64,000 nt of DNA, taken from contig NC_090353.1 in assembly GCF_035084215.1 (NCBI RefSeq), positions 13,082,001 to 13,146,000 of the forward strand, in the 5' to 3' direction. Shown piece after piece: positions 4,863-58,720 of the stretch (its first letter is position 1; the number at the start of each line of letters is the position of its first letter). This DNA comes from Heptranchias perlo. Its lineage: Eukaryota. The position numbers and the translations under genes are program-made. The notes below the pieces were generated by a model. The model was not told where the DNA came from, ran no database searches, and was given only the letters and a program-made list of their open reading frames with translations.

Positions 4863-5510
<648 letters not shown>

Positions 5511-5666
5511 TAAGTCCTGATGTACGGCAGACCTTTGGGGGAGGGGCTTCACAAAATGCATCTTCTCAGGGCAACTGTTTCATTTGTTTCTCTGGTTGAG
5601 GAAGAAATCAGGATAAGTAGCACATGTTCCGTGACTTACCAGGTGAAAGCTCTCTGCTGCTCCTTT

Positions 5667-19763: not shown

Positions 19764-20993
19764 CTTCCCAGTGGGTATACCACTGTTCTGCATAATAATG
19801 GAAGAGGAAGAGGAGCAGCAGAAGCAAGAGGCTCTGAGAGTGAGGCATTATGACAGAAGATAACACACATCTTTTTCCACCATATTGGTGGCGCTGTATT
19901 TGCGTTTGTTTTGCATCGGTGTCGGCTAATGAGCTACACAGGAAATTTGGGGTAAGTTCCTGTCGGCAAGATCAGCGTGGAATCCAACCTAAATTTCGGC
20001 ATTATTTCAGCGTAAATGGCATCGAGGAAATTCCAGGCCACTGTGTGGTTTTTCTTTTCTAATTTTGGTTGCCATGTTCATGCCCCTTCATGAGGCTACA
20101 CCTCCCATCTTCATGAATTTAACGATCATTCACTTATGGGGGTTAAGAGGGAGGCAGACAGACCGTCACTCACTCCTCTAAATGTCTCCGCCACTGAATG
20201 CTCCGTGTGATGTGCTCCTAAAAGCCACACAGGTTCAATTCCCGGTTGTGCTGTTCACTGCTCTCAGCTGTTGGGGTGCTGCAATTGGCCTCAGTGCCCC
20301 AAGGCTAGGGAAGAGGAAAAAAATCGGCCAGGATCCCTGCTCCTGATCGCTATCAGGTGGCCCCTGCTGGGAAGTGTGAGTTTCTAGATGTCAGGTGAGG
20401 ACCAGATTGGCCGAGAGGGTGACCAGGCTTGGCTATGCAATGTCCTTAGAATTGTACCTCAGTGTGGTCAAGAGAGGAGAGAAAAAAAGCATCAAAATAT
20501 TGAGCCCAACAAGCCCGTCCCTTTTTGATAGATCAATCCAACCGAACCAACTTCTCACCAGACCTCTCAATCCCTTCTCCTTCTACCCGCTCGAGGGTAC
20601 TAATACCCTTCAGGGTTACATAAATGCATCTAATCAGGATATGAGTGGGGGAAGGGAAGTAAGTAGAGAGGGGTTGATGTTTTGTTTATTTTTATTGAAG
20701 GGTTAATGATTAAAAGTGTACACACACGGGACTGTCTGATATCTAATTATATGCTGAATTATGGTGGTGCACAATGAATCAGCTTCATGCCAGGATTTGG
20801 CATTAGTTCTTCCCCAATGCCCCTGTATCCCGATATAGTCAGTACCTTGTGCGCATTTCGCCTGTGTATTTTAACCTCAGTGTTAGGCTCACGCATGATT
20901 AACACCTCTACAATGTTTATTTTCCCTGTAGCTCATTTGATTTTGTTGGTAACCCCACTTAAAGGATGCTATTGTTCCACCTGGGATATAAAA

Positions 20994-21230
20994 TGTGGAG
21001 ATGCCGGTGATGGACTGGGGTTGACAATTGTAAACAATTTTACAACACCAAGTTATAGTCCAGCAATTTTATTTTAAATTCACAAGCTTTCGGAGATTTT
21101 CTCCTTCCTCAGGCAAATGTTTCAAGATCTTGAAACATTTGCCTGAGGAAGGAGAAAATCTCCGAAAGCTTGTGAATTTAAAATAAAATTGCTGGACTAT
21201 AACTTGGTGTTGTAAAATTGTTTACAATTG
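20994..21230. mobile_element. Non-autonomous Penelope-like mini-element forming a perfect 206-bp palindrome (21025-21230)
   Basis: The arms are exact reverse complements centred at 21127/21128. There is a 12-bp TSD TGGGATATAAAA (20982-20993, 21229-21240). The tail is the reverse complement of the terminus of the Penelope element at 45703-45731. Confidence 0.85.
21137..21177 (+). ncRNA. Minimal type I hammerhead ribozyme-like motif (mirror copy on the - strand at ~21078-21118)
   Basis: AUUUGC-CUGAGGA-A-GGAGA(AAA)UCUCC-GAAA-GC-U-U-GUGAAU contains both core boxes, stem II, a palindromic micro stem III, and stem I AUUUGC/GUGAAU. Confidence 0.6.
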
Positions 21231-29116: not shown

Positions 29117-30377
29117 GCAGGATGTTGAACTACAGAGAGGTTTCCAAACGAGCCCCAATCTTGTCCCCATCTCTCGTCCATACAAACGGCCTTTCCAGCA
29201 GATGGTCACTGATAAACAGTCAGAGTGAGAGTCCTAACTATCCAATTAAATTTCATCATTTTTTTTCTGTACCTAATTTCTCTTTTTAAAAGAAACTTTC
29301 AAACACTCCACCCCATTTTTCTTCTTCCTCCTTCTCCCACTACCAATTTGACTCCACGGCCAACAAAAACTCCAGAAGACTGGTGAATGATATTGTTGCA
29401 CTCTAAAGATGACCAGATAAATCTCTGATGAGGTTTTACTTGATAAACAGGGCTGCCAACAAGCTGATGAACCTATCCATAACACAGAGGACAAGAACAC
29501 ACCTGGACTCATCCGTGGTGCGCTAAGGGTTCAAAAGGGGACTTCTGAGCTACCGGCATTGGAAGAGTTAACACGCGAATAGTCATGTGACTGCAAAGCA
29601 ATTAAATGTGTTGTCATTGACCGGAGGCTGTTACACTGTGTTTGGGTTTTATGTCCCCTTTATCTTGCTAGGAGGGTACCCTGTAATTCTGCCTGAGGTA
29701 TTGTAACTCTCCCTGGGAGGTAGTTTCTTAGATGTCAACAGTTTGGCATTTTAGAACCAGCAGCTAAGGCAAAAAGTTGCCTCTGCCATCTCATTTATCT
29801 GGTCTGCTATCTTGGCTCTGAACACGGATGGATTGAGCCCACAGATACAGAGCAGAAATACGAGAGCTGGTTCAGCAATCGCCCGCGGCTTGTAAGGAGC
29901 AGCCCTGGCAAGGGCAGGTCAGAGAATCAAGGGCCCGTGACCTGTGATTTCCCTGGAGGTTGTGGGGGTGTGATTTCCTGACTTGCTCTACCAGCGGGTG
30001 CATTCCACACTGGAAACACCCGAGTGCAGGATCAGCCTACAGTTTCCCATTGCTAACTCATACGAACCTTCCCCCCACCTCCACCAAAGAAATCAGGGAG
30101 GTTCCTGGCCATACATGGTAACTGCTCATGTGTAACTTGAACTGTTCTGTAATACACTCGGGGCAAATTCAGTCACGATTCCAAGTGCACTGGAAATGGT
30201 TGTGAATACAAATGGCACACAAGTTGGTCTAATGCTCCCGGGATTTAAATTCAGCTTGTAAAACGAGAAAGGGGCAAAGGTGCAGCTTTTCCTTGTTCGG
30301 CTAATTCTACCCCCCTCAATTACAGCCTGTACCTCATTGTTCTCTCTTTTTTTTGCTTCCTCTCTTTCTCTCCACAG

Positions 30378-30564
30378 AAGCAGCCAAGGATACATGCACA
30401 TGAAGTTCAGCAGAACGAAAGACTGCAAGTACATTCTCGGCCAGAACAGCCCACCGTTTGACAGTATTCCAGAGGTCATAAACCACTACACAAGCCACAA
30501 GCTGCCAATTAAAGGGGCTGAACATCTCTCCCTGCTGTTTCCTGTGACGGTACAAACACTGTGA
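30378..30564 (+). CDS. SHD: SH2-domain adaptor, last coding exon: (R)SSQGYMHMKFSRTKDCKYILGQNSPPFDSIPEVINHYTSHKLPIKGAEHLSLLFPVTVQTL*
   Basis: The acceptor is tctctttctctccacag|A. The phase-2 junction AG+A gives Arg and joins the 5390-5509 exon in frame, completing the SH2 domain. The GAEHLSLL C-terminus is typical of the family, and MKF and terminal QT resemble SHD. Confidence 0.9.
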
Positions 30565-36256: not shown

Positions 36257-38283
36257 GGGCCCGATGTTAGCAGGGCTGCGGGTTCTCGGCGGGGGGGCTA
36301 TCGGGCGCGTGAAATTAGACAGTTTCCCGCGCGATCGTAGCAGACAATCCACTAATTGGATCCACTTACCTGCTCCTCCGGGTTCCCCACTGCTGATCTG
36401 CGTGTCGGGCGGGCTGCGCATGCGTAGTAAGATCTGTCAGCTGGAGGCGCTCTATTTAAAGGGGCAGTCCTCCACCGACAGATGCTGCAACAAATAGAAA
36501 AAATTACAGCATGGAGCAGCCCAGGGGGAAGGCTGCTCTCAGTTTAATGATGCCTCACCCCAGGTATCAATACATGGGGTGAGGAGGAGGGGGAGGACAG
36601 AGATCTTCCTCCCGGCGGGCGGGAGGAAGCGGCCTGCCTCTGCCACCAGGAAGGCCTGGCTCGAGGTGGCAGAGGAGGTCACCAGCGCCACCAACATATC
36701 GCCCACCTGCACACAGTGCAGGAGGCGCTCCAATGACCTCAGTAGGTCAGCCAAAGTGAGCACACGTAGTCTTTCCCCTACACTCCGTCTGCCACATCAC
36801 TGCCCCCACCCCAAATCTCCTTCGGCACTGCCAACACTACTCTGTCACATCACCCCTCATACCCACTCAAACCTCATCCTCATCTTACCTGCACCTACTC
36901 ACCTCGCCAGTACTCATCCAGCCACTACCACTCAACCCAATCCTCATACAATCTCATGGCTCTATCTCATACTCACCCTCTCGTGCATCTCTTTCACGGT
37001 CAGCCTCACTCAACCTGCCACTACCTGTGCTGCAGCCACAGGGCATGCATCACATATGTGCAGTAGGAAGCGTAAGGCAAACGTGTCGTGAGCATGAAGG
37101 GGATGCACAAGGGTGTTTGAGGGTTTGTCATGGGTGTTACTTATATTGAATTTCTGACCAACTCACATTACATATTATATTGGCACCACTACTGCCATGT
37201 CTTCGCGAATCCTGTCTGGCTTGTGCAATAATGCCCGCTCCTGAGGATCACTATGAGGACCCACAACTGATGCCACCCATTGTGTCACTGCAGAGTGGGT
37301 GTAGGTGTATTTGCAGGGCTCTTTTGCGCAGACGACTGAGAGACGTCGGCGATGTCCCCGGTTGCACCCTGGAAGGATGCGGAGGAGAAGTTGTTGAGGG
37401 CAGTGGTGACTTTGACAGCGACAGGTAAGAAGATGGTGCTCGGGCCAGCCGGGAGCAGCTCGGCATGAAGGAGGCTGCAGATGTCCACGACTACATGTCG
37501 AGTGACTCTGAGCCTCCGTGTGCACTGCTGCTCAGAGAGGTCCAGGAGGCTGAGCCTCGGTCTGTGGACCCTGTGGCGAGGGTAGTGCCCTCTGCGACGC
37601 ATCTCTCTCTGCGGTTGCCCTCCCTCCTGCTGTGCAGGTGGATGTGTCACAGCACTCTGTTGTGGAGCTCCACGTGTCAGAGGTGGACGGCGTGGCCGGC
37701 GAGGCTGGTGAGGCTGTTTGCCCTCCGAGGAGGTCATGACTGCAGCTAAGGCGGCCCCCATCCACAAGATGTCCATCTGAGGGGGTCCGCAAGGTAGGTA
37801 CATGTCTCCGGACCCCAGGGTAAGTGTGTAGGTTGGTGACTTTGACTGTCAGGAGGGGGGTGGTGGAGGCCAATCTTTGTCCCAAGTGACAGAGTGGCCT
37901 CCTGCAATGGGTGAGGGTCTCCACCTGTCAAATGGACCTTTGCAGCTGCCACAGGCTGACAGCTGCAACACGTCCATTTGACCTGGGAGTGTTTCCCCCA
38001 GTGTGGGAAACAGTCCCACTTTGTTCTAAAATCCCACATAATCCCTTAATCAGGTCAGTTAATGACCTGAAATACCTAAATAAATACTCTCAAGCGGCAT
38101 CCCGCTGGCTTTAATTGCCTGCGGGATTCCCACCAGCGGGGGCTGCGCGCGCACGCCGGCGCGTCCGTGGGGAACCCGGAAGTGGGCGGGATCGAGACGG
38201 GATCCGGTCCCGCTCGGGATTTCCGATTTTCGGGGCCCCCACCGCCGAGAACGCACCCGATAGCGGGTGGTAAAATCACCCCC
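36257..38283. mobile_element. PIF/Harbinger DNA transposon, internally deleted, with convergent Myb/SANT-like (+, ~36511-36756) and transposase (-, ~37180-37761) remnants
   Basis: The + strand encodes RKAWLEVAEEV...TCTQCRRRSNDL (MADF/Myb-like). The - strand encodes LSEQQCTRRLRVTR...LPVAVKVTTALNNFSSASFQGATGDIADVSQSS (HARBI1-like N-terminus). It has imperfect GGG-start TIRs and a 3-bp TSD CAT, and it splits a DeuSINE copy. Confidence 0.88.
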
Positions 38284-39601
38284 CATCTGTTTTTAGTGGT
38301 AGTGTTTGAGGGAGATTGTTAGACAGAACGCTGGGAGAAATCTCCGCTCTTGGTCAAACAGTACTGACACTTCTGTACTTGGACACTCAGCATCTGCTGT
38401 AGAAATTAGGCCCGTATGTTTGTCTGTTATGAAAGTAGCTTCAGCTTTTTGAAATTAAAGAATTCTGACCCATTTAAAATCAAATTAACCATGCATTTGG
38501 AAACGGAATCCTTTGCAGAGTGATGGCATTGTGAACTCTTCAGGAGAGTAATCAGCACCTACCCTCCTATCCTGCTGGAGTGCAGTTCCACGGACACTGT
38601 AGGAACTTAGGCAGTGAGTTTAAGACGCTCCTTAAAACCTACCTCATTGACCAAGCTTTTGGTCACCTGTCCTAATATCTCCTTATGTGTCTCGTGTCAT
38701 ATTTTGTTTGATAACACTCCTGTGAAGCGCCTTGGGACAATTTACTACGTCAAAGGCGCTATATAAATGCAAGCTGTTGTTGCTGAGTGTCAGGAGGCTA
38801 TTCGACCGTGGGGGGTATTGTAGCAAAGCCCAATCCTGTCCTCGTCCGTCATGCACTTGCATATGTTTTCCTGCAGGGGTCACTGGATAGCGGCCAGGAG
38901 CAGGAACCTGGGCTGATTTTTCTCCAGAGCCAATTGTCAAGCCCAGGTGGGATCAGCTAAATCAGCACAGAGCTGTGATCAAACCTTCTCGGTCTGTAGG
39001 ACTCAGTTCCACACCGGGCGGTGCATTTACTAACGGAGCCACCGTAGAGCTAATGAAAGCTGCTTTCATATTGTGCTCAGATCCCCGTGCCTCTAGCTGT
39101 AACTCCCGAAGTCCGGCTCTTGCACAGACAAGTCGCAAACCCAAACTTGCCGCGATTCGGCCAGCGGCAGAGCAGTAACCCATAATAACCAGTCTTCCTG
39201 GCAGCCGCAATGGCCACGATCTCCACAGACATCGCAGAAGGATTCAAATTGAAAAACAACAAGTACATCATCATCTGGAGGTTTCCTATTTCCCTGCTCC
39301 CCCCCTCTACCCCACCTCATGTGCAGCTTGGTCAGCATCTGAAAGAGAAAGATAGGTTAACATTTTGGGTGGAGTCCCTTCACCCGGTTACGTCATTCAA
39401 AATGAGACATTAAACTGAGGTGCTGCCTGGCTGATCAGGTAAATGTTAGAAACCATAATTAAAAAATGATGGTCTGATGTTCTGAGAGGATGAAAGCAAA
39501 TGGGCTGAATGGCCTTCTTCATTCAAACCCATTTTGTAAAACGCTAACTTGTCTTTTCTTTTTCGGGTGCTGACAGGCCAGCTGTGCGTTGCTAGCTAGT
39601 T

Positions 39602-42600
39602 GGGGGCAATTTTAACCCGGAGCAGTTTTCAGCGGGGAGGGGGGGCGTGCAGGGCAAGTGCAAAACGCATTCACTGGCCTAAATTTCAGGCCGGGGGTAT
39701 TTCAACTCCTGGGACTCATTGAGAATTGGCAGGTTTTCCGCCCGATCGCATCGAGACCGGGAAGCCTGCCCACTTCCTGGGCGTAATTTCCGGCGGGACT
39801 CCAGAGGCCTATTTAAAGTGGTAACGTACCTCTTAAAGGGAGGTTGCATTCACTTTACTGATATTGCTGTCTCTTACTGGAAGATGAGTCGGACGCAAGC
39901 CGCCCAGGTTTCCTGAAGCCTCCCTCGATGTCCTGGTGGAAGAGGTGGCGGCAAGAAGGGAAGTTCTCTTTCCCACCAATAGTAGGAAGATACTAAAAAT
40001 GGACGTTCGACAGGCCTGGAGAGAGGTGGCTGAGATTATCGGCTCCAGGAGCATCACCGCCCAGGACCTGGGTTCAATGCGGGAAACAGTCAATGACCTG
40101 ACAAGAGAAGTGAAGGGTGAGTCCAGCTCTTCATTTCTCCAGCTCTCTCAATGACTCCTGGCAGCAGTCCTTCACCCCCCTCCCCCAGCACTCTGAACAA
40201 TTCCCTGCCCTGCATCACATCCTTCACCTAAATTTCAGGCCGGGGGTATTTTAACTCCTGGGACTCATTGACAATTGATTGGCAAGTTTTCCGCCCAATC
40301 GCATCGAGACCGGGAAGCCTGCCCACTTTCTGGGCGTAATTTCCGGCGGGACTTCTGAGGCCTATTTAAAGTGGTAACGCACCTCTTAAAGGGAGGTTGC
40401 ATTCACATACTCTACCCACCTCTCATTCTCAGTCCAAACACACACATACCTCTTGCTTATTGCCGTCACAACAGCATTCTCTTCTCACAGGGTAGCCATT
40501 CCTTCCTCGTGTCACACTCCAGTCACTTGTTTTCCATTCAACACTTCCCCATCCTGCTTCCATCTTCTCCCTCTCAGCATACGTACAACAAGCAGAAGCC
40601 CCACCCATGTGCATGCTCCCTTTCAGTAGCCACTCACTAACTCTCACCCTCTCTTTCTGCAGGAGAAAAAGGCGCATTACACAAGGTAGCGGAGTAAGAC
40701 CTGGGGAGGAACACCCAGCATCCTGGTCCTTTCCGAGCTGGAGCAGGAAGCTATCGACATCAGTGGCCCTTCAAGAGTTGTCCGCATTGGAGATTTTGAG
40801 GCTGGGGGTTATCTGAACGGGGTCTCTATTACTCATGTACCTCAGAAAAACACACATTCAGCCAGCTTGACAACATCAAGCTGCATTGTGAAGCCTGTCA
40901 TCCACTAGTATCCTGTCAGGGCCAGGATAACTCTTGAACCTTTTCTCTTTCCTCTAATTCCTTCTCAGCAGCGAGAGCCTCCAGAAGAACACACCTCAGA
41001 GGAGGACAGTTCTTTTGAGGAGGCACCGTCATGCTCTTCATTCCTCCCAAGCACCAGCACAGCAATTGGCACCCCGGGCGGGTTGGACAGTGAGTCTCAG
41101 GGGTCTGCACTTGGTGACGCGTCCAGTGCGAGTGAGCAGGAACAGACAGTGGTGGCAGGGACAGCCCAAGAGACGGCTCGCCGGAGGGCAAGTTCATCTC
41201 CAGGCTCTGCTGAGGAGAACAGAGATCCGGACTTCAGGGGCCCAGCTATGAAAAGAAAACTGCTTGCCTCACACTAAAAGTTATGCGAAGTATTGGAAAG
41301 CCTACCAAGGAGTTCCAGCACCCATGGCTGAAAGTATGAAGGAGACCACTTCCTCTCACACATGTCCTCTCGCACATTATCACCACTCAAACAGTTGCCA
41401 TCTAACCTCTGGGCTCCACCTTGGAGCTACTGGTGGACTGAATAGATGGGGACTATCAAAGCATCAATCATTTCCTGCAGTACGCTCTCCTGCAGATCAG
41501 TGGGACTGATGAGCCTTAGCCCCATGGGAGCCACGGTGGCGCAAATGGAGCGGTACGTGTTACCCTTTCTCAGGATGGCAGCAGGTCTGCTCCCTCACCC
41601 ACCCCCCTCCCTTTTCCCCTCAACCAATACCTGCCATGGTGCCAGAAAGCCAGATGGGCCAGACTGTCTCGGCTGCAGACAAAGTGCTGCAGTGCGCAGC
41701 CGGGACCTCACAGGCTCCAGCTCCCAGGAGTCGCCAGCCACATGAGCAAAAGCAGCCTTCCACCCTCTGCTGGAGCCCCCGGGGAAGCACCTCGTAGGAG
41801 TAGCAGAGTTCGTAAACCTTTTAAGAAAGGCGCTATGGTTTGACACTTTGGTGAGAGATTAATTCAAGGCAATTATTGTGTTTGATTGTAAAATAATCAC
41901 CTTTACCACATTTGGCACTTTGGTCCGCAGTGTATTTTCATAGCAGCTTCTGAATCCGAATTGTCAGAATGTCATTCATACAAAAGTTAGCTGAATGGTT
42001 TCAATGTTCTCTACTGCAGGATTAAGAGAGTGGTGAAGGGGGTAACAAGGACTGTTAATGCAGAGGGTCTTTGTGTAACTTTTCAAGGGATGGCTCTTTC
42101 TGTTGCTCTGCTTCTTCCAGCTGCAGTCCCCTGTTTATTGCCATGTTGTGCAACATGCAGCACACTACAAAGATGCAACTGACTTTGTGTGGGGCATATG
42201 GTAGGGAGCCCCCAGACCCATCTAGCCACCTGAACCTTTGCTTCAATAGCCCATAGTGTGCTCAGTGATATTCCTGGTGGTCCCATGGCCGTGACTGTAC
42301 CTGAGCTGTTCAGCTGTGGAGGGATTGCGGAGATGTGTCATCAGCCATGTGTACGTGAGATATTCTTGTCCCTAACCAGCCATCCTCTTACTTTCCTGGA
42401 AGGGTGGACTAGCAAGGGGATGGATGAATGTTGCAGGATGAAAGCTGCCTGCGAAACTGGCCCAGACTTGCAAAATTCTTCTGCAGTGCAAAAAATGGCA
42501 CCCATGATAAGCTGTGAGAGCTTCATCGGGGGAGTAAGGCAAAAAAAAAGTCGGACATAAGCAATTGCCAAGTTTAAAAATCCCTTGGGAAACCACTAAG

Positions 42601-42952
42601 CAAAACAGCACACAGATCTCTACAAGCTGAGTGCCCCTTTAAATAGTGCTGCCAATGTATCAGTCAGTGCCTAACACCAATCATGTGAGGTTTTACTCAG
42701 TGGTTTGGCCGATGGGCGGGGCTTCTGACATACCCAGTTAAAATCGTGTTGGGGTCCTAACGACATCATAGGACTCCAATTTGCATGGATTGATGAAGCA
42801 CCCACTTGCTCCCAGCGGGCGCCTAATTGAAGAGAGCAGTTAAAATGGCGGCCAGCTCGATTACTGAGGGTCCAGTGTGGTAAGTCAAAACCAGTCATTT
42901 TAACAGCCCCTCCTGCCCCATTCCCACCAGGTGGGTTTGGTTAAAATCGACT
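39602..42952. mobile_element. Second PIF/Harbinger relic: intron-containing Myb/SANT gene (+) and transposase C-terminal fragment (-, ~42055-42400)
   Basis: The + strand reads LDVLVEEVAARREVLFP...RQAWREVAE...VNDLTREVK|GTGAGT, with acceptors at ~40662 and ~40968. The - strand reads KQRFRWLDGSGGSLPYAPHKVSCIFVVCCMLHNMAI (HARBI1-like C-terminus). The ends are GGGGGCAATTTTAACC ... GGTTAAAATCG. Confidence 0.85.
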
Positions 42953-44157
42953 GTGTTCTGTTTTTTATTTTACTCACCGTGGTAACTGATGTAATGGAAT
43001 ACATCGGGCTCCCATGTCAGCATTAAGGTCAGGTGGCACACAGCTGCCCGCACTCTGCCCCAGCAGTACATGTCAGCCCCAGAAGAGTGCCCCCAGACCA
43101 GTCTGACTCTTTGCAATGCTGTGGTGACTGAGTGAGATTGCCAGTTTAGTGCCAATTCAGGAACTTGCCCACTAGAAATTCAATTCAGACTGCTCTAGAC
43201 ATGTAGAAGCCCTGCAGCCAGAGAGAAGAGACTTTCAGCCACTTTGGGCTGGTTTGAACCCAAGTCCCAGAGGTGTAAGGTCATTATCCAATCCAATTCC
43301 CTTGCCCCTTCCTGTTTTTTGTTGCAGATTTATGGCGTTTTCAAACTTGAGAAAACATTGTTTGTGATTCTGATTGCTGAGCTGCCAGCGATGGAATAGG
43401 GCTGGTGATGAGTGGGTTTTGCATCGTATTATTGATATGATCTATGTATCTGTAGGAAATATGTCGATACGATTGTATAATACAGAGTCATTTGTACTTG
43501 TTCCTGTTCTGTGTGATGTCTGTACAGTATCTTCCAATGGTATCATAATAGGTACAGCACAGAAGGAGGCCATTCGGCCCACCATGCCTGCTCTTCAACA
43601 GAGCTATCCAATTAGTCCCATTCCCCTGCTCTCTCCCCTTAGCCCTGTCATTTTTTTTCCTGTGTCCTGACGTTTATTTTAATTTTGAAATAGTTACAGA
43701 CAGATTACCTCAAAGGAGAAATCATCCTTCTGTATAGGGAAATACTGACTAAAGCTGATCAAATATCACTTAAAAAGTCCTGATTTCAAGTCAAATAATC
43801 TAGTTTTTCCTTCAACATCCCTCCTGAGCTGAGTTTCAGGGCAATTCCTTCTCTTTCACTTGCTTTCCAGTTTAAAAACAAGCTTGGGGGATGCTATACA
43901 GGGATAAAGCGAGCAAATGGGTCCTATTAAAGTTATAAGACCTTAAAGTTTTAGTGCAACTATCAGTACTGTAGTCTTCTGTTTGTTTTTTCTTGCACGG
44001 AAGTGCCTGCCTCCACTTGGCAATTGTCTAGAATGGAGGTGAGAAGTGAGGAGCTCAGCATGTGGGGTATTGTCAGCACAGAGGTGTGTCTCACCAAGGT
44101 GCACAAATGTAAGGAATCTTACAACACCAGGTTATAGTCCAACAGTTTTATTTGAAA

Positions 44158-44195
44158 ATCACAAGCTTTCGGAGGCTTTCTCCTTCGTCAGGTGA
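44158..44195 (-). ncRNA. Minimal type I hammerhead ribozyme-like motif with intact core
   Basis: The minus strand reads UCAC-CUGACGA-A-GGAG(AAAGC)CUCC-GAAA-GC-U-U-GUGA. The + strand twin at 45609-45645 has GAAA changed to AAAA (45634). Confidence 0.6.
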
Positions 44196-44743
44196 GTGTG
44201 GGATTCCTTGAAAGTTACCGCATATAAAGTCAGAGAACAATGCCTGGTGATTACAGATAATCTTTTCAACTGCCCGTTATCAAGGCCATCAAATGAATTG
44301 AATAGTGTTCAGACAGAGAAACATTAGATACCAGACTACTGAATATACAAACGGCCAGAACCAAAGACAGAGAGGGAGAGAGAGAGAGAAACATCCGAAA
44401 GGAAGAGAAAGAGAGAGAATGACCAGTTGTATTAAAAACAGATAACTTTTTTTTCCGCTGGTGGGGTTACGTGTAGTGTGACATGAACCCAAGATCCCGG
44501 TTGAGGCCGTCCTCATGGGTGCAGAACTTGGCTATCAATTTCTGCTCGACGATTTTGCGTTGTCTTGTGTCTCGAAGGCCGCCTTGGAGAACGCTTACCC
44601 GAAGATCGGTGGCTGAATGTCCTTGACTGCTGAAGTGTTCCCGACTGGGAGGGAACCCTCCTGTCTCCGCTCCGGGGAAGTACTGGACGACGAAGGGTAC
44701 TCTGTTGGTTGCGTCCCGTGTTTGTCTTCTGAGGAGGTCTATG

Positions 44744-45337
44744 CACCATGTTCTCCGCAGCCTTCAACATGTCATCGATGACGACGAACACCTCGCTAAG
44801 GCCATCCCCACGCCTCCACTACACGCCTTCAAACAGCCACCCAACCTCAAACAGACCATCGTTTGCAGCAAATTACCCAGCTTTCAGGAGAACAGCGTCC
44901 ACGACACCACACAACCCTGCCACGGCAACCTCTGCAAGACATGCCAGATCATCGACACAGATACCACCATCACACGAGAGGACACCACCCACCAGGTACA
45001 TGGTTCATACTCCTGTGACTCGGCCAACGTTGTCTACCTCGTACGTTGCAGGAAAGGATGCCCCGGAGCATGGTACATCGGCGAGACCATGCAGACACTG
45101 CGACAACGGATGAACGGACACCGCGCAACAATCGCCAGACAGGAGGGTTCCCTCCCAGTCGGGGAACACTTCAGCAGTCAAGGACATTCAGCCACCGATC
45201 TTCGGGTAAGTGTTCTCCAAGGCGGCCTTCGAGACACAAGACAACGTAAAATCGTCGAGCAGAAATTGATAGCCAAGTTCCGCACCCATGAGGACGGCCT
45301 CAACCGGGATCTTGAGTTCATGTCGCACTACACGTAA
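44744..45337 (+). pseudogene. Penelope ORF C-terminus: RT linker plus GIY-YIG endonuclease
   Basis: AFKQPPNLKQTIV, PCHGNLCKTC, SCDSANVVYLVRCRKGCPGAWYIGET, RMNGHR, VGEHF and GLN are standard Penelope endonuclease motifs; the frame is uninterrupted. Confidence 0.9.
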
Positions 45338-46167
45338 CCCCACCAGTGGAAAAAAAAGTTATCTGTTTTTAATACAACTGGTCATTCTCTCTCTTTCTCT
45401 TCCTTTCGGATGTTTCTCTCTCTCTCTCCCTCTCTGTCTTTGGTTCTGGCCGTTTGTATATTCAGTAGTCTTGTATCTAATGTTTCTCTGTCTGAACACT
45501 ATTCAATTCATTTGATGGCCTTGATAACGGGCAGTTGGAAAGATTATCTGTAATCACCAGGCATTGTTCTGTGACTATATATGTGGTAATTTTCAAGGAA
45601 CCCGACACTCACCTGACGAAGGAGAAAGCCTCCAAAAGCTTGTGATTTTCAAATAAAACTGTTGGACTATAACCTGGTGTTGTAAGATTCCTTACATTTG
45701 TACACCCCAGTCCATCACCGGCATCTCCACATCATCACCAAGGTGCAGCATTCCTGAACGGAGGCCTCATGTTAGACTCTGTATGAGATTGTAGCCCACA
45801 ACAAAACATTAGTGAGCAGCTTGGGTCTGCACTTTAACCAAGCCCAATCTATTGCTGTGTACAGCGAGCCAATTGTTTACTTGTCAATAGAGGCCACCAC
45901 ACAGAAGGACGATTCACTGATAGTTTAAATTTCCAAAATCTCTCATATTTCCATGGATCAGCCTTCAGATTCACAGGGTCAGTCATTGGTCAGTGAGCCT
46001 TCAATGGACGGAATCAAAGCCTGACCGTTTACCAATGTTTTTGAATATCTCAGACTACGTCAGCTCTGCTCATTCAAACTTCAGTCATTTCGGAGCTGCA
46101 TTGGGACCCTCTGGCAATTCAAGTTCAACAGTCTTAGGATCTCCGCATCTACTTGAGATTGCATATC

Positions 46168-46241
46168 TCACATTTCTTTTGTAGGTCGATAGTTCTCACC
46201 AGCTTTATTTCTATATTTCACATTGATGTACACGGGCTGCT
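46168..46241 (-). CDS. TMIGD2: Cytoplasmic exon of the TMIGD2-like receptor: (E)QPVYINVKYRNKAGENYRPTKEM*
   Basis: Strong acceptor tctttctctttttacag|AG, phase 1, in frame with the TM exon. Y-x-N-V-x-Y-R matches the human TMIGD2 tail motif (FYSNVLYR) as recalled. It is too short for the ORF track. An internal G|GTGAG donor at 46199 may be used instead of the stop. Confidence 0.7.
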
Positions 46242-47569: not shown

Positions 47570-49125
47570 AAAATCACAAAATAATTACAAATGAGGAAGA
47601 CCATATAGTGCATAATAGTTCATCTATCCAAGAGCACTCTGCAGTCCCCCATTGCAGCATCCAATTGTTTCCTAAATGCATCCAGGGTTTTTGCCTCTAC
47701 TCCTCTGCTCAGAAGTCCAAGTGTTGATCACTCTCTCCATGAAGAAGAAAGTCCTAAAGTTACCTTTCACTAGTTTGTACCTATGTCCCCTTTCTTACTC
47801 TTACAATTTAATTTAAATGAATATTCTGGATTTACCTTTTCCATACCATTTCCTATCTTATAAATCTCCGTAATATTTTTTTTTATTCATTCATTCATGG
47901 GATGTGGGCATCACTGGCAAGGCCAGCATTTATTGCCCATCCCTAATTGCCTTTGAGAAGGTGGTGATGGGCAATAAATGCTGGCCTTGCCAGTGACGCC
48001 CACATCCCATGAATGAATGAATGAATAAAAAAAATTCTTCTTTCTTGAACCACTGTAGTCCGTGTGATGATATCTCCTTTCTGTCAACCCTCAGATGTCT
48101 CCTTTCCAGGCTGAAAAGCCTGAGTCTCATAACTCAGACCCCTGACGCCAGAGATCAACCTTGCGGTTCTTCTCCGCACAGCCTCCAGCACTTGAATATC
48201 ACCCTTGTGTCTTGGTGACCAGAACAAGATATAATACTCAAGGTGCGGTCTGATTGTACAGTTTGGTCACAACTTTCTCTGGCTTATATTCAACTGATTT
48301 AGCTGTGTAGTTTAACATTCTATTGGCTTTGTTTTTACTGCTCTGCATTGTTTAGCATCGAATCTACTAAGACCTCTCGGTGTCTTTCCACTTCATTCTT
48401 AGCTTTTCAACAGTGTTCACAGAATATGTATGTTGCTTATTTTTCCATCCTACATACAGTACTTTACACTTGTCTTCCTCAGGTTTCATCTGCCTTTGTT
48501 CTGCCCACATGCTTATTTTGTTTAACTCACTTTGTAATTTCTGAGCTGCTTCATTCAATCACACTGCCCCTTCCAGTTTGGTATCATATGAAAATTTGAC
48601 CACTTTTTCATAGCGTTTCTGAGTCCAGGTTATTTATATAAATGAGAAACAACAGTGGTCTCAACACTGAGCCCTGGGGCACCCCACCAAGTATCCTCCA
48701 CCCGCCCCCTCCATACCCCAACATAACTCCTTTAACGCATATTCATTGCTTTCTATCCTTCAGTCTGTTATTCATCCATTCCCAGGGTTTTCTGGCAGGA
48801 TCTTCCCCTTCTGAATCCCTGTTGGCTACTGTTTACTAAGTTATTATTATACAGCTACTCCTCAATGATATCGCTGATAATTGAGTCCATTTTTTTCACA
48901 CAAAATGAAGGTGAGACGAATGGGTTTGTAGTTGCCTGAATCTAGTTTGACACTCTTTTTGAATATGGGCATCACATTGGCCTGTTTCCAATCTACTGCT
49001 ACCTCCCCACTTCCCCCAGTGACTCCCTTGCAATGATTATCAGTGCCTCACAAATCTCCTCCCTACTTTCTTTCAGCATTCTGGAATAAATACCATCTCT
49101 CCCCAGTGATTTGTTTATTTTGAGC
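47570..49125 (-). mobile_element. Old degenerate CR1 LINE RT fragment with a nested LINE-tail foldback at 47876-48070
   Basis: Minus-strand remnants of GVPQGSVL.PLLF (48645-48690) and LQSELNKISMWAEQRQMK..KCKVL. Confidence 0.7.
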
Positions 49126-49219: not shown

Positions 49220-49324
49220 CTTTTTTAAATGTAATGAATCTTCGAGCCAAAAAGAAAGTGGTGACTGACACAACCAATGCGATAGACGACACACAGCTAA
49301 TTAGGATCCATTTTGTTGAGTCTA
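49220..49324 (-). CDS. TMIGD2: Transmembrane exon of the TMIGD2-like receptor: (V)DSTKWILISCVSSIALVVSVTTFFLARRFITFKK
   Basis: 105-nt phase-1/phase-1 exon (acceptor tttgttctgttcag|TA, donor AAAG|GTAAG). It encodes about 22 uncharged hydrophobic residues followed by an RR stop-transfer, in frame with the IgV exon. Confidence 0.75.
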
Positions 49325-49685
49325 CTGAACAGAACAAAGTAATCGGGTCACCATTCACTGTCACCATTTGCAATGCATTATTGGCTGTCCCTACAGACAA
49401 ATACATGACAATACAGAATTATAATGTACCCAGTTTAATCAAAACCAGTGAATCGTGTTCTTTTGCTAATTTTCTCCCCTCTTTTTCTCATGGCACTGAA
49501 TCATGCTAGGATACAGTTCCACAGGCACAAGCAATCCTTAAGGACTTCACCTGTGACCATTCTGCATGCGTGAGCCTGGACAGCAAGTAAATTCATTCAC
49601 TTGAATCTGTGAACTGCTTATAACTGGCAAGTCATCCCATCTTATGGAGAGGAGAATTACATAGAATTTACAGCACAGAAGTAGG

Positions 49686-58363: not shown

Positions 58364-58720
58364 CTTGGATCTGCAGATTAGTCCCATTCCCAGACTTTCT
58401 GTACACTGGTGGAGGAATCTCAATTAATACTTCACACAAGTACATCCCAGTGTCATTCAGGTTTATGCGGGAGATAGTCAGAGAGCTAACTGCATCATTG
58501 AAGAAATGTTTTGTCCTTTCGGTGTAATTCGGGTAAGCCTTCGTTGTGTTTCCTTTGAAGGTGAGCACCATCATCTTTCTCTCTGGTAAGATTTTACTCC
58601 ATTCTATTCGCAGCTCCGCATTTGTGCTATTAATCCGACAAGTCATTGTTACCGAGTCTCCTTCCCTTGCAGATAGGTGAAGTGGGGATTGTGTAACCGT
58701 CAGGATTTCACCGTTCCCAG
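58364..58720 (-). CDS. TMIGD2: IgV (VJ-type) ectodomain exon of a TMIGD2/CD28H-like receptor
   Basis: 357-nt phase-1/phase-1 exon (acceptor ttttgtccttacag|CT, donor CAAG|GTACGT). It shows V-set hallmarks VTQSP, VTMTC, IEW, SLTI, DTGMYLC and GNGTNLQI, an EIP motif after the second Cys as in human TMIGD2, and 5 N-glycosylation sequons. Confidence 0.8.

Follow-up and report, generated by a model that had tools for sequence, protein, structure and literature searches.

A mirror-image Penelope-like insertion behind a likely CD28H/TMIGD2-like gene of the shark Heptranchias perlo, with a hammerhead motif predicted to be buried in duplex

Penelope-like elements (PLEs) typically show an inverted, 5′-truncated copy at their 5′ end plus a tail at one end (PMC8557442), and in the account of PMC11167929 the element protein cuts and extends both strands, with two start sites that define the tail. 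Their pseudo-long terminal repeats (pseudo-LTRs) carry minimal hammerhead motifs; PMC4209133 reports that a single minimal motif was uncleaved and that dimers were cleaved poorly, while for the anole element PAc cleavage is reported to have required the element protein, and in vivo the cut site showed no RNA ends (PMC11167929). Hammerhead repeats near stop codons have precedent, because the few exon-overlapping retrozymes of Xenopus tend towards 3′ untranslated regions (UTRs) (10.64898/2026.07.22.740005), and in rodent Clec2d a 3′ UTR hammerhead cuts reporter output by 80% (PMC2950038). Here we describe a PLE insertion in a 64,000-nt stretch of Heptranchias perlo NC_090353.1 (the window, meaning the whole stretch of DNA that was analyzed), which lies downstream of a − strand gene that is likely CD28H/TMIGD2-like. 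A limited literature search turned up no publication on this locus.

The insertion is probably a passive passenger behind this likely CD28H gene, built in the usual layout of its class and bearing a hammerhead that is predicted to be buried and inactive. This reading draws on the anatomy of the insertion, the copy numbers of its family, a hammerhead and poly(A) hexamers that are family defaults, and splicing of the gene into its last exon with read-through of a GT at 46199. A preliminary description, made from the letters alone, had placed a Penelope insertion just beyond a TMIGD2-like stop codon and had noted highly similar inverted arms of ~560 nt. Both points hold, as Penelope-like marks and a 13-bp target-site duplication are found and the coordinates are right. 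The parts of the element, mapped against a natural copy of the family (L033) that served as reference, are as follows.

44091..44103 (no strand): left copy of the target-site duplication, 13 bp, with an exact twin at 45735-45747
44098..44666 (−): inverted 5′-truncated copy with the end of the endonuclease open reading frame (ORF) and the pseudo-LTR, without a tail; L033 1265-1834
44667..44744 (−): short inverted piece from the reverse transcriptase (RT) thumb/linker; L033 786-866
44745..45734 (+): main 5′-truncated copy, with linker, GIY-YIG endonuclease ORF (stop 45337), pseudo-LTR and tail
44918..45172 (+): CX4CxxC linker (44918-44944), Cys pair (45029-45088) and His motifs (45113-45124 and 45161-45172), motifs as in PMC8557442
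45707..45734 (+): 28-nt tail, at this end only (PMC8557442; PMC11167929)
45735..45747 (no strand): right copy of the target-site duplication, an exact match to the left copy
45748..46167 (−): single-copy DNA between the gene stop and the element

The duplicated target sequence, TCACCAAGGTGCA, occurs exactly twice in the window, and the distance from the gene stop at 46170-46168 is 420 nt to the duplication and 433 nt to the element itself. The inverted arms (44098-44666 and 45137-45706), which are spaced 470 nt apart, are 97% alike (16 mismatches and a single gap in an alignment of 570 columns), a similarity that is far beyond chance at the sequence level yet common within the element family. 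The first 6 nt of the inverted copy overlap the target duplication, and the 28-nt tail stands on the right end only, the left end being tailless. Relative to L033, the left part of the insertion falls into two pieces, 786-866 and, after a jump of ~400 nt, 1265-1834; the short piece joins the arm across this jump at a 3-nt AGA overlap. The main copy begins at L033 position 874, and in other family copies the sequence of the short piece sits immediately 5′ of the main copy's start. A small extra piece at the end of the inverted arm is seen in 3 of the 29 distinct loci (window 44667-44744, which is L001; L016, 1359-1470; L022, 1011-1055), where its start lies 7-30 nt from the 5′ end of the main copy, a position that looks like a jump of the second cDNA to the stopping point of the first.

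The + strand ORF reads VVYLVRCRKGC..YIGET, NGHR and GEHF, which by motif comparison is a GIY-YIG endonuclease with a CCHH arrangement: a Cys pair lies between VVY and YIG, His motifs follow downstream, and the linker CHGNLCKTC at 44918-44944 fits the CX2-5CxxC pattern of the Neptune/Nematis type. The ORF matches the C-terminal part of RT-bearing shark proteins at up to 95%; a 196-aa piece of it matches a 643-aa shark protein that contains PF00078 (P0005; 99% of the piece length, 95%). The endonuclease call rests on these motifs and on the match to shark proteins, because Pfam and NCBIfam scans of the endonuclease piece gave no match. The RT core is absent at this 5′-truncated site, and L033, which lengthens the ORF by ~150 aa, likewise gave no Pfam RT match. 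Judged by these features and by the layout of pseudo-LTR with hammerhead, inverted 5′-truncated copy, one-sided tail and target duplication, the element is a 5′-truncated endonuclease-positive (EN+) PLE of Neptune type; we infer Neptune over Nematis from host range and not from a tree. Pieces of the element ORF are also contained in annotated shark protein isoforms (P0008, P0010, P0018, P0019, P0020 and P0035), among whose hosts are a cytochrome P450, XRCC5 and septin 5a, so gene models that absorb this family are frequent.

The anatomy is consistent with a simple order of events. The endonuclease would have cut the two strands 13 bp apart, after which one DNA end may have primed a cDNA of ~990 nt from the tail start and the other end a cDNA of 570 nt from the tailless start. 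The second cDNA would then have jumped ~400 nt to a point just ahead of the end of the first, and the two could have been joined head to head at a CG, with G12 of the right hammerhead copy presumably decaying later at a CpG.

Comparison across the 3.25-Gb genome shows how ordinary such an insertion is. A 1-kb piece of the element has 6,177 candidates, and the exact 33-nt intact hammerhead core occurs in 6,283 copies, against 323 of its G12A version and none of a reversed control. Among the first 100 cores listed on C1 (50.8 Mb), there are 13 divergent intact/intact pairs spaced no more than 3.3 kb apart, two pairs are intact on the left and G12A on the right like this locus, and one is the opposite way round; extrapolation from the 13 exact pairs in 50.8 Mb suggests ~800 or more mirror-image pairs of the family genome-wide. 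The comparison set of 29 loci, from which L011 was dropped as a duplicate of L010, provided 28 other close copies. An inverted family piece lies 5′ of the main copy in 17 of the 28 (1.5-kb flank), and in seven the full series of duplication, inverted arm, main copy and duplication is present, with the inverted arm ending before the tail. Of 45 pseudo-LTRs, counting both of those in the window as well as the duplicate, 38 retain an intact hammerhead core, the pseudo-LTR AATAAA is present in 27 of the 28 copies and an antisense ATTAAA in 24, so hammerhead state and hexamers alike are family defaults. The window itself contains a second, shorter palindromic Penelope stub (20993-21230), which is 87-89% like the family's pseudo-LTR.

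The two hammerhead motifs of the insertion lie on opposite strands.

44159..44195 (−): minimal type I hammerhead with an intact core, on the gene's strand; cut predicted after U17 (44163); features as in PMC4209133
45609..45645 (+): twin hammerhead with G12A at 45634 (CG to CA), antisense to the gene

These motifs were recognized by comparing their core letters with those in PMC4209133; an Rfam scan of the locus at E values up to 1 gave no hammerhead match. The left copy, read from 44195 to 44159, holds the complete core of C3 U4 G5 A6 N7 G8 A9, G12 A13 A14, A15.1-U16.1 and H17 (C3 at 44191, G12 at 44170, U17 at 44163), and the right copy departs from it at position 12, where an A replaces G through a CpG change (CG to CA). 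The intact core on the gene's strand and the loss of G12 from the twin were thus correctly noted before. In a folding model the isolated left motif forms helices I and II, with G10.1-C11.1, an extra base after A9 and a palindromic 15.2-16.2, and its loop III is 2 nt; a compensatory A-U at 10.1-11.1 is found in 1 of the 45 pseudo-LTR copies (L028).

The predicted behavior of the motif changes when it is embedded in an RNA that reads through the element from the gene. The order of synthesis would be the antisense arm, the 470-nt spacer and last the sense arm, which carries the hammerhead towards its end, so the antisense arm would be made first and the sense arm would zip into duplex while emerging. 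As had been anticipated, a long duplex is predicted, with 558 of 569 arm bases paired in the equilibrium model. The model gives helix II a probability, P(G10.1-C11.1), of 1.7e-19, an unpaired probability of the sense arm's AAUAAA of at most 0.003, and a duplex over the motif of -92 kcal/mol, compared with -7.8 for the hammerhead helices and -2.5 for a 4-bp dimer helix. The transcript also lacks a cis dimer, because helix III needs a second sense copy and none is present. Within the model, then, the host transcript would fail to fold a hammerhead: the duplex would hide both the motif and the AATAAA, and the masking appears constitutive rather than switch-like.

These results bear on three further proposals of the preliminary description. 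A self-cleavage site in the receptor mRNA is disfavored because the motif is predicted to be fully paired, has no second sense copy and belongs to a type that cleaves poorly as dimers or needs protein; a new poly(A) signal at 44147 is disfavored because the hexamer is predicted to be fully paired and the antisense arm is transcribed first. The third proposal, that an active hammerhead in the receptor mRNA is kept masked by the duplex and cleaves itself once the duplex opens, could draw on the presence of an intact core on the gene's strand and a dead core on the other, and on the reporter effect of the rodent Clec2d motif (PMC2950038). We nevertheless consider such a switch extremely improbable, since the modeled masking is near-absolute and built co-transcriptionally, the 2-nt loop III calls for a dimer partner that is missing from the RNA, an intact core is what the family carries by default (38 of 45), and G12A, a CpG change with 323 occurrences in the genome, is paired with an intact core in this way twice more in 51 Mb of C1 (first 100 cores listed).

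Another idea is that the pseudo-LTRs act as outward promoters. In that case the right one would send antisense RNA into the last CD28H exon, and the left one would yield a short RNA without the antisense arm, whose unmasked hammerhead could pair in trans with other element RNAs. Both pseudo-LTRs do face outwards, helices I and II form when the motif is folded on its own, and the pseudo-LTR of Drosophila Penelope is reported to hold a promoter that can drive neighboring sequence (PMC2377424); but that activity was demonstrated in a distant clade only, the RNA contigs discussed below give neither strand nor start, and with hundreds of like pairs in the genome nothing would be special about this one. 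We regard this as very unlikely.

The coding parts of the gene that lie nearest to these considerations are the following.

46168..46241 (−): coding part of the last exon, with the YINV motif and stop TGA at 46170-46168; contigs and orthologues continue past the GT at 46199
49220..49324 (−): exon for the transmembrane segment, joined by splicing to 46241, with 49324 or 49321 as its acceptor
58364..58720 (−): Ig V-set exon with EIPPP

The full exon series comprises a leader exon ~12.7 kb beyond the window (L039 2653-2703), the V-set exon (domain match E 1.3e-14), two duplicated 42-nt stalk exons, the transmembrane exon and the last exon with YINV. From 184 candidates, three orthologous clusters of sharks were identified, and all three orthologues continue past the position of the 46199 GT. 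The RNA evidence consists of assembled contigs from four presumed-RNA runs of one sample in one study, for which strand and transcript ends are not given; contigs from two of the four runs join 49220 to 46241 at GT-AG and cross the 46199 GT and the stop without differences. Because both contigs and orthologues read through the GT, the stop codon named in the preliminary description is used in at least one spliced form, without splicing at 46199. Splicing-out of the element through this GT is absent among the 15 of 37 contig joints listed, and a minor form spliced at 46199 is possible.

EIPPP and YxNx are described as marks of CD28H in cartilaginous fish, with synteny to fsd1 and stap2 as a further criterion (PMC11599192). 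The single V domain with EIP(PP) and the cytoplasmic YxNx motif are both found here and make the gene, on its sequence, likely CD28H/TMIGD2-like. A COS-domain search aimed at this synteny gave two matches among 21 candidates, neither on C32; a search of the Protein Data Bank (PDB) returned antibody V domains only among the 60 matches listed; and the Heterodontus orthologue is labeled CTLA4-like by NCBI. The frame after YxNV varies among four sharks, this copy having the shortest tail, and in sharks the reading of the sequence beyond this motif seems free to shift from one frame to another. At 46185-46085 (−) the tail is frameshifted relative to two orthologues, whose YT(V/T)SSSCGD-KTV stretch persists out of frame (RYAISSRCGDPKTVELE, stop 46087-46085), and the Pristiophorus tail uses the third frame; the contigs match the window DNA here without gaps. 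The stalk exons (57805-57764 and 57253-57212, −) are a tandem duplication within a 128-nt duplicated block, in comparison with a single copy in the shark orthologues.

How transcripts of this gene end depends on the signals behind its stop. In agreement with the preliminary description, no AATAAA or ATTAAA lies between the stop and the element (45748-46167), and the three candidate signals that it named, ATTAAA 45373-45368, AATAAA 44152-44147 and AATAAA 43678-43673, are all present. A 420-nt interval would lack a canonical hexamer with probability 0.63 at the window's frequency, and the gap does hold the variant hexamers TTTAAA (45929-45924), AGTAAA (45881-45876) and AATAGA (45853-45848) on the − strand. 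Such variants are weaker poly(A) signals. The canonical-class signals are listed below.

45368..45373 (−): ATTAAA in the antisense arm, predicted to be open until the partner arm has been synthesized
44147..44152 (−): AATAAA of the pseudo-LTR, predicted to be paired in read-through RNA
43673..43683 (−): overlapping ATTAAA (43683-43678) and AATAAA (43678-43673) beyond the element, a candidate ancestral signal

One way in which the element could have mattered is by donating a poly(A) site, so that transcripts passing the weak signals would end ~20 nt after the ATTAAA at 45373-45368 and the UTR would gain ~390 nt of antisense element, with no duplex and no sense hammerhead. This hexamer is the first of canonical class past the stop, a U run, CA and a G/U-rich stretch come after it, and the model leaves it unpaired with a probability of 0.84-0.91, the partner arm being 900 nt further on and as yet unmade. 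The ATTAAA is, however, carried by the family by default (24 of 28 copies), nothing indicates that it is used, and the sequence upstream of it is purine-rich and lacks TGTA; we think a donated site rather unlikely.

The signals beyond the element suggest a different scenario. As the double signal there lay 840 nt from the stop before the insertion, a plausible spacing for an ancestral signal, the insertion may sit within an old 3′ UTR, in which case a real share of the mRNAs could run to 43683-43673 with a 560-bp hairpin that lowers receptor output without any ribozyme, the RNAs being edited, retained or poorly translated like those with inverted Alus. Only variant signals come ahead of the element, the duplex is predicted to be very stable, inverted Alus provide a precedent (10.1101/2023.11.30.569399), and the left flank is covered by contigs from two runs (X1, 43712-44132; X2, 43644-44013). 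Yet this cover is unspecific, since contigs of these runs lie over introns and more distant downstream DNA as well (41914-42589, 42783-43435 and 49293-49677); three variant hexamers and the open ATTAAA come earlier; the sequence after the 43673 signal has just 10% U; and the arms show no pairing bias. An isoform of this kind is unlikely, in our estimate, without being negligible.

Other contig observations concern the same interval. Contig stops at 45908 (X1), 45918 (X2) and 45912 (X4) were considered as an mRNA end and are not used as evidence, coming as they do from one study that has no DNA run. The single-copy interval 45748-45907 has no cover among the contig pieces listed. No T>C row appears in contigs of 44104-45700, a region where thousands of family copies pile up and where contigs drop rare variants, and no empty-site joint is present among the 15 of 37 joints listed.

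Selection on the arms was also considered. On gene-sense RNA the 16 arm mismatches comprise 5 G-U, 7 A-C and 4 others (P = 0.77), so selection for arm pairing was rejected for lack of bias; 6 of the 16 lie at CpG. The arms are 1.9% and 2.3% from the family majority, compared with a mean of 2.6% for 31 other copies, and about 2.8-2.9% from each other. At the mutation rate of 7e-10 reported for the epaulette shark (PMC10587355), the insertion is at most ~2e7 generations old (1e7 to 1e8), a figure to be read as an upper bound, since the distance would be inflated by CpG sites, RT errors and two source RNAs. The insertion had been called recent, which stands on a transposon scale only; with arms 2.9% apart a very recent, polymorphic insertion is unlikely, and the insertion is probably old enough to be fixed.

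Several points weigh against regarding the insertion as a passive passenger. Of the two hammerheads it is the one on the gene's strand that is intact, no canonical signal precedes the element, and the ATTAAA/AATAAA pair at 43683-43673 lay 840 nt from the stop before insertion. The X1 contig at 43712-44132 spans from single-copy flank into the element's left end; its 29 element-only letters are too few to count as a bridge. The pair count on C1 covers a single stretch of a single contig, the 28 loci, as the best matches to a 1-kb query, are biased to long, similar copies, and the folding was computed at equilibrium without proteins or editing. An effect on expression is possible, as is a long isoform that bears the hairpin. 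At its most consequential, the insertion would have rewired the CD28H 3′ end, with a long isoform carrying the 560-bp hairpin and poly(A) choice tuning output, which we consider improbable; the boldest form of this idea, in which editing or a helicase frees the buried hammerhead and cleavage is helped in trans by element RNA or protein, is scarcely credible. If the long isoform were real, an immune receptor outside the mammals would be under a control like that by inverted Alus, and it would follow that single Penelope insertions can supply such duplexes. As a passive insertion, the locus is of little consequence, being one among roughly 800 or more mirror-image pairs of the family. Even so, the junction offers a minor hint at how PLEs integrate, in that the second cDNA seems to have landed where the first ended, a feature shared with L016 and L022.

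Elsewhere in the window, a hairpin at 47876-48031 with 66-nt arms (95%) lies in the last intron; it is built from the end of another repeat and gives weak Rfam microRNA matches below gathering scores. Weak Myb/SANT-like matches (E 0.03-0.08) and repeated blocks occur at 36498-37091 (+) and at about 39600-42900, and the blocks have the look of decayed Harbinger-type DNA transposons. SH2-domain exons at 5124-5513 and 30262-30564 (+) belong to a convergent neighbor gene that is presumably SHD/SHB-like; human SHD adjoins TMIGD2.

Set beside the described systems, the element shares with the EN+ PLEs Neptune and Nematis a C-terminal GIY-YIG domain with Cys pair and His motifs, the CX2-5CxxC linker, 5′ truncation, an inverted 5′ copy, a one-sided tail, a target duplication and a pseudo-LTR hammerhead, as these are described in PMC8557442. 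It differs from them in its tail of 28 nt rather than 30-40 nt, in the ~400-nt internal jump of the inverted copy, which lands beside the main copy's 5′ end, and in a site without the RT core. The gene in turn resembles the CD28H/TMIGD2 of cartilaginous fish described in PMC11599192 in its single V domain with EIPPP, transmembrane segment and YxNx motif, whereas a frame unlike that of the orthologues leaves it a tail of just 16 aa behind YINV. Like inverted Alu repeats in 3′ UTRs, which enter the mRNA only with a distal poly(A) site (10.1101/2023.11.30.569399), the insertion offers a long, near-perfect transposon duplex downstream of a stop; it arose, in contrast, from one insertion event in a shark, has arms of 570 bp that are 97% alike, and is only a candidate for mRNA inclusion.

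The hammerhead motif has the conserved core, the unpaired base between 9 and 10.1, the G10.1-C11.1 pair, the short helix I and the palindromic helix III (AGCU) of the minimal type I motifs of metazoan PLEs, PAc included (PMC4209133; PMC11167929). Its helix II has 4 bp compared with 7-8 bp in Schistosoma, and the two copies lie on opposite strands, so no cis dimer can form; any cleavage activity here is putative. With the Clec2 3′ UTR hammerheads of mammals (PMC2950038), the locus shares the position of its motif beyond the stop codon of a gene for a membrane receptor. Those motifs, as described there, are discontinuous, occur in several mammals and are reporter-tested; the motif behind the shark gene is instead a dimer-dependent transposon default, with more than 6,000 identical cores in the genome, and is predicted to be buried.

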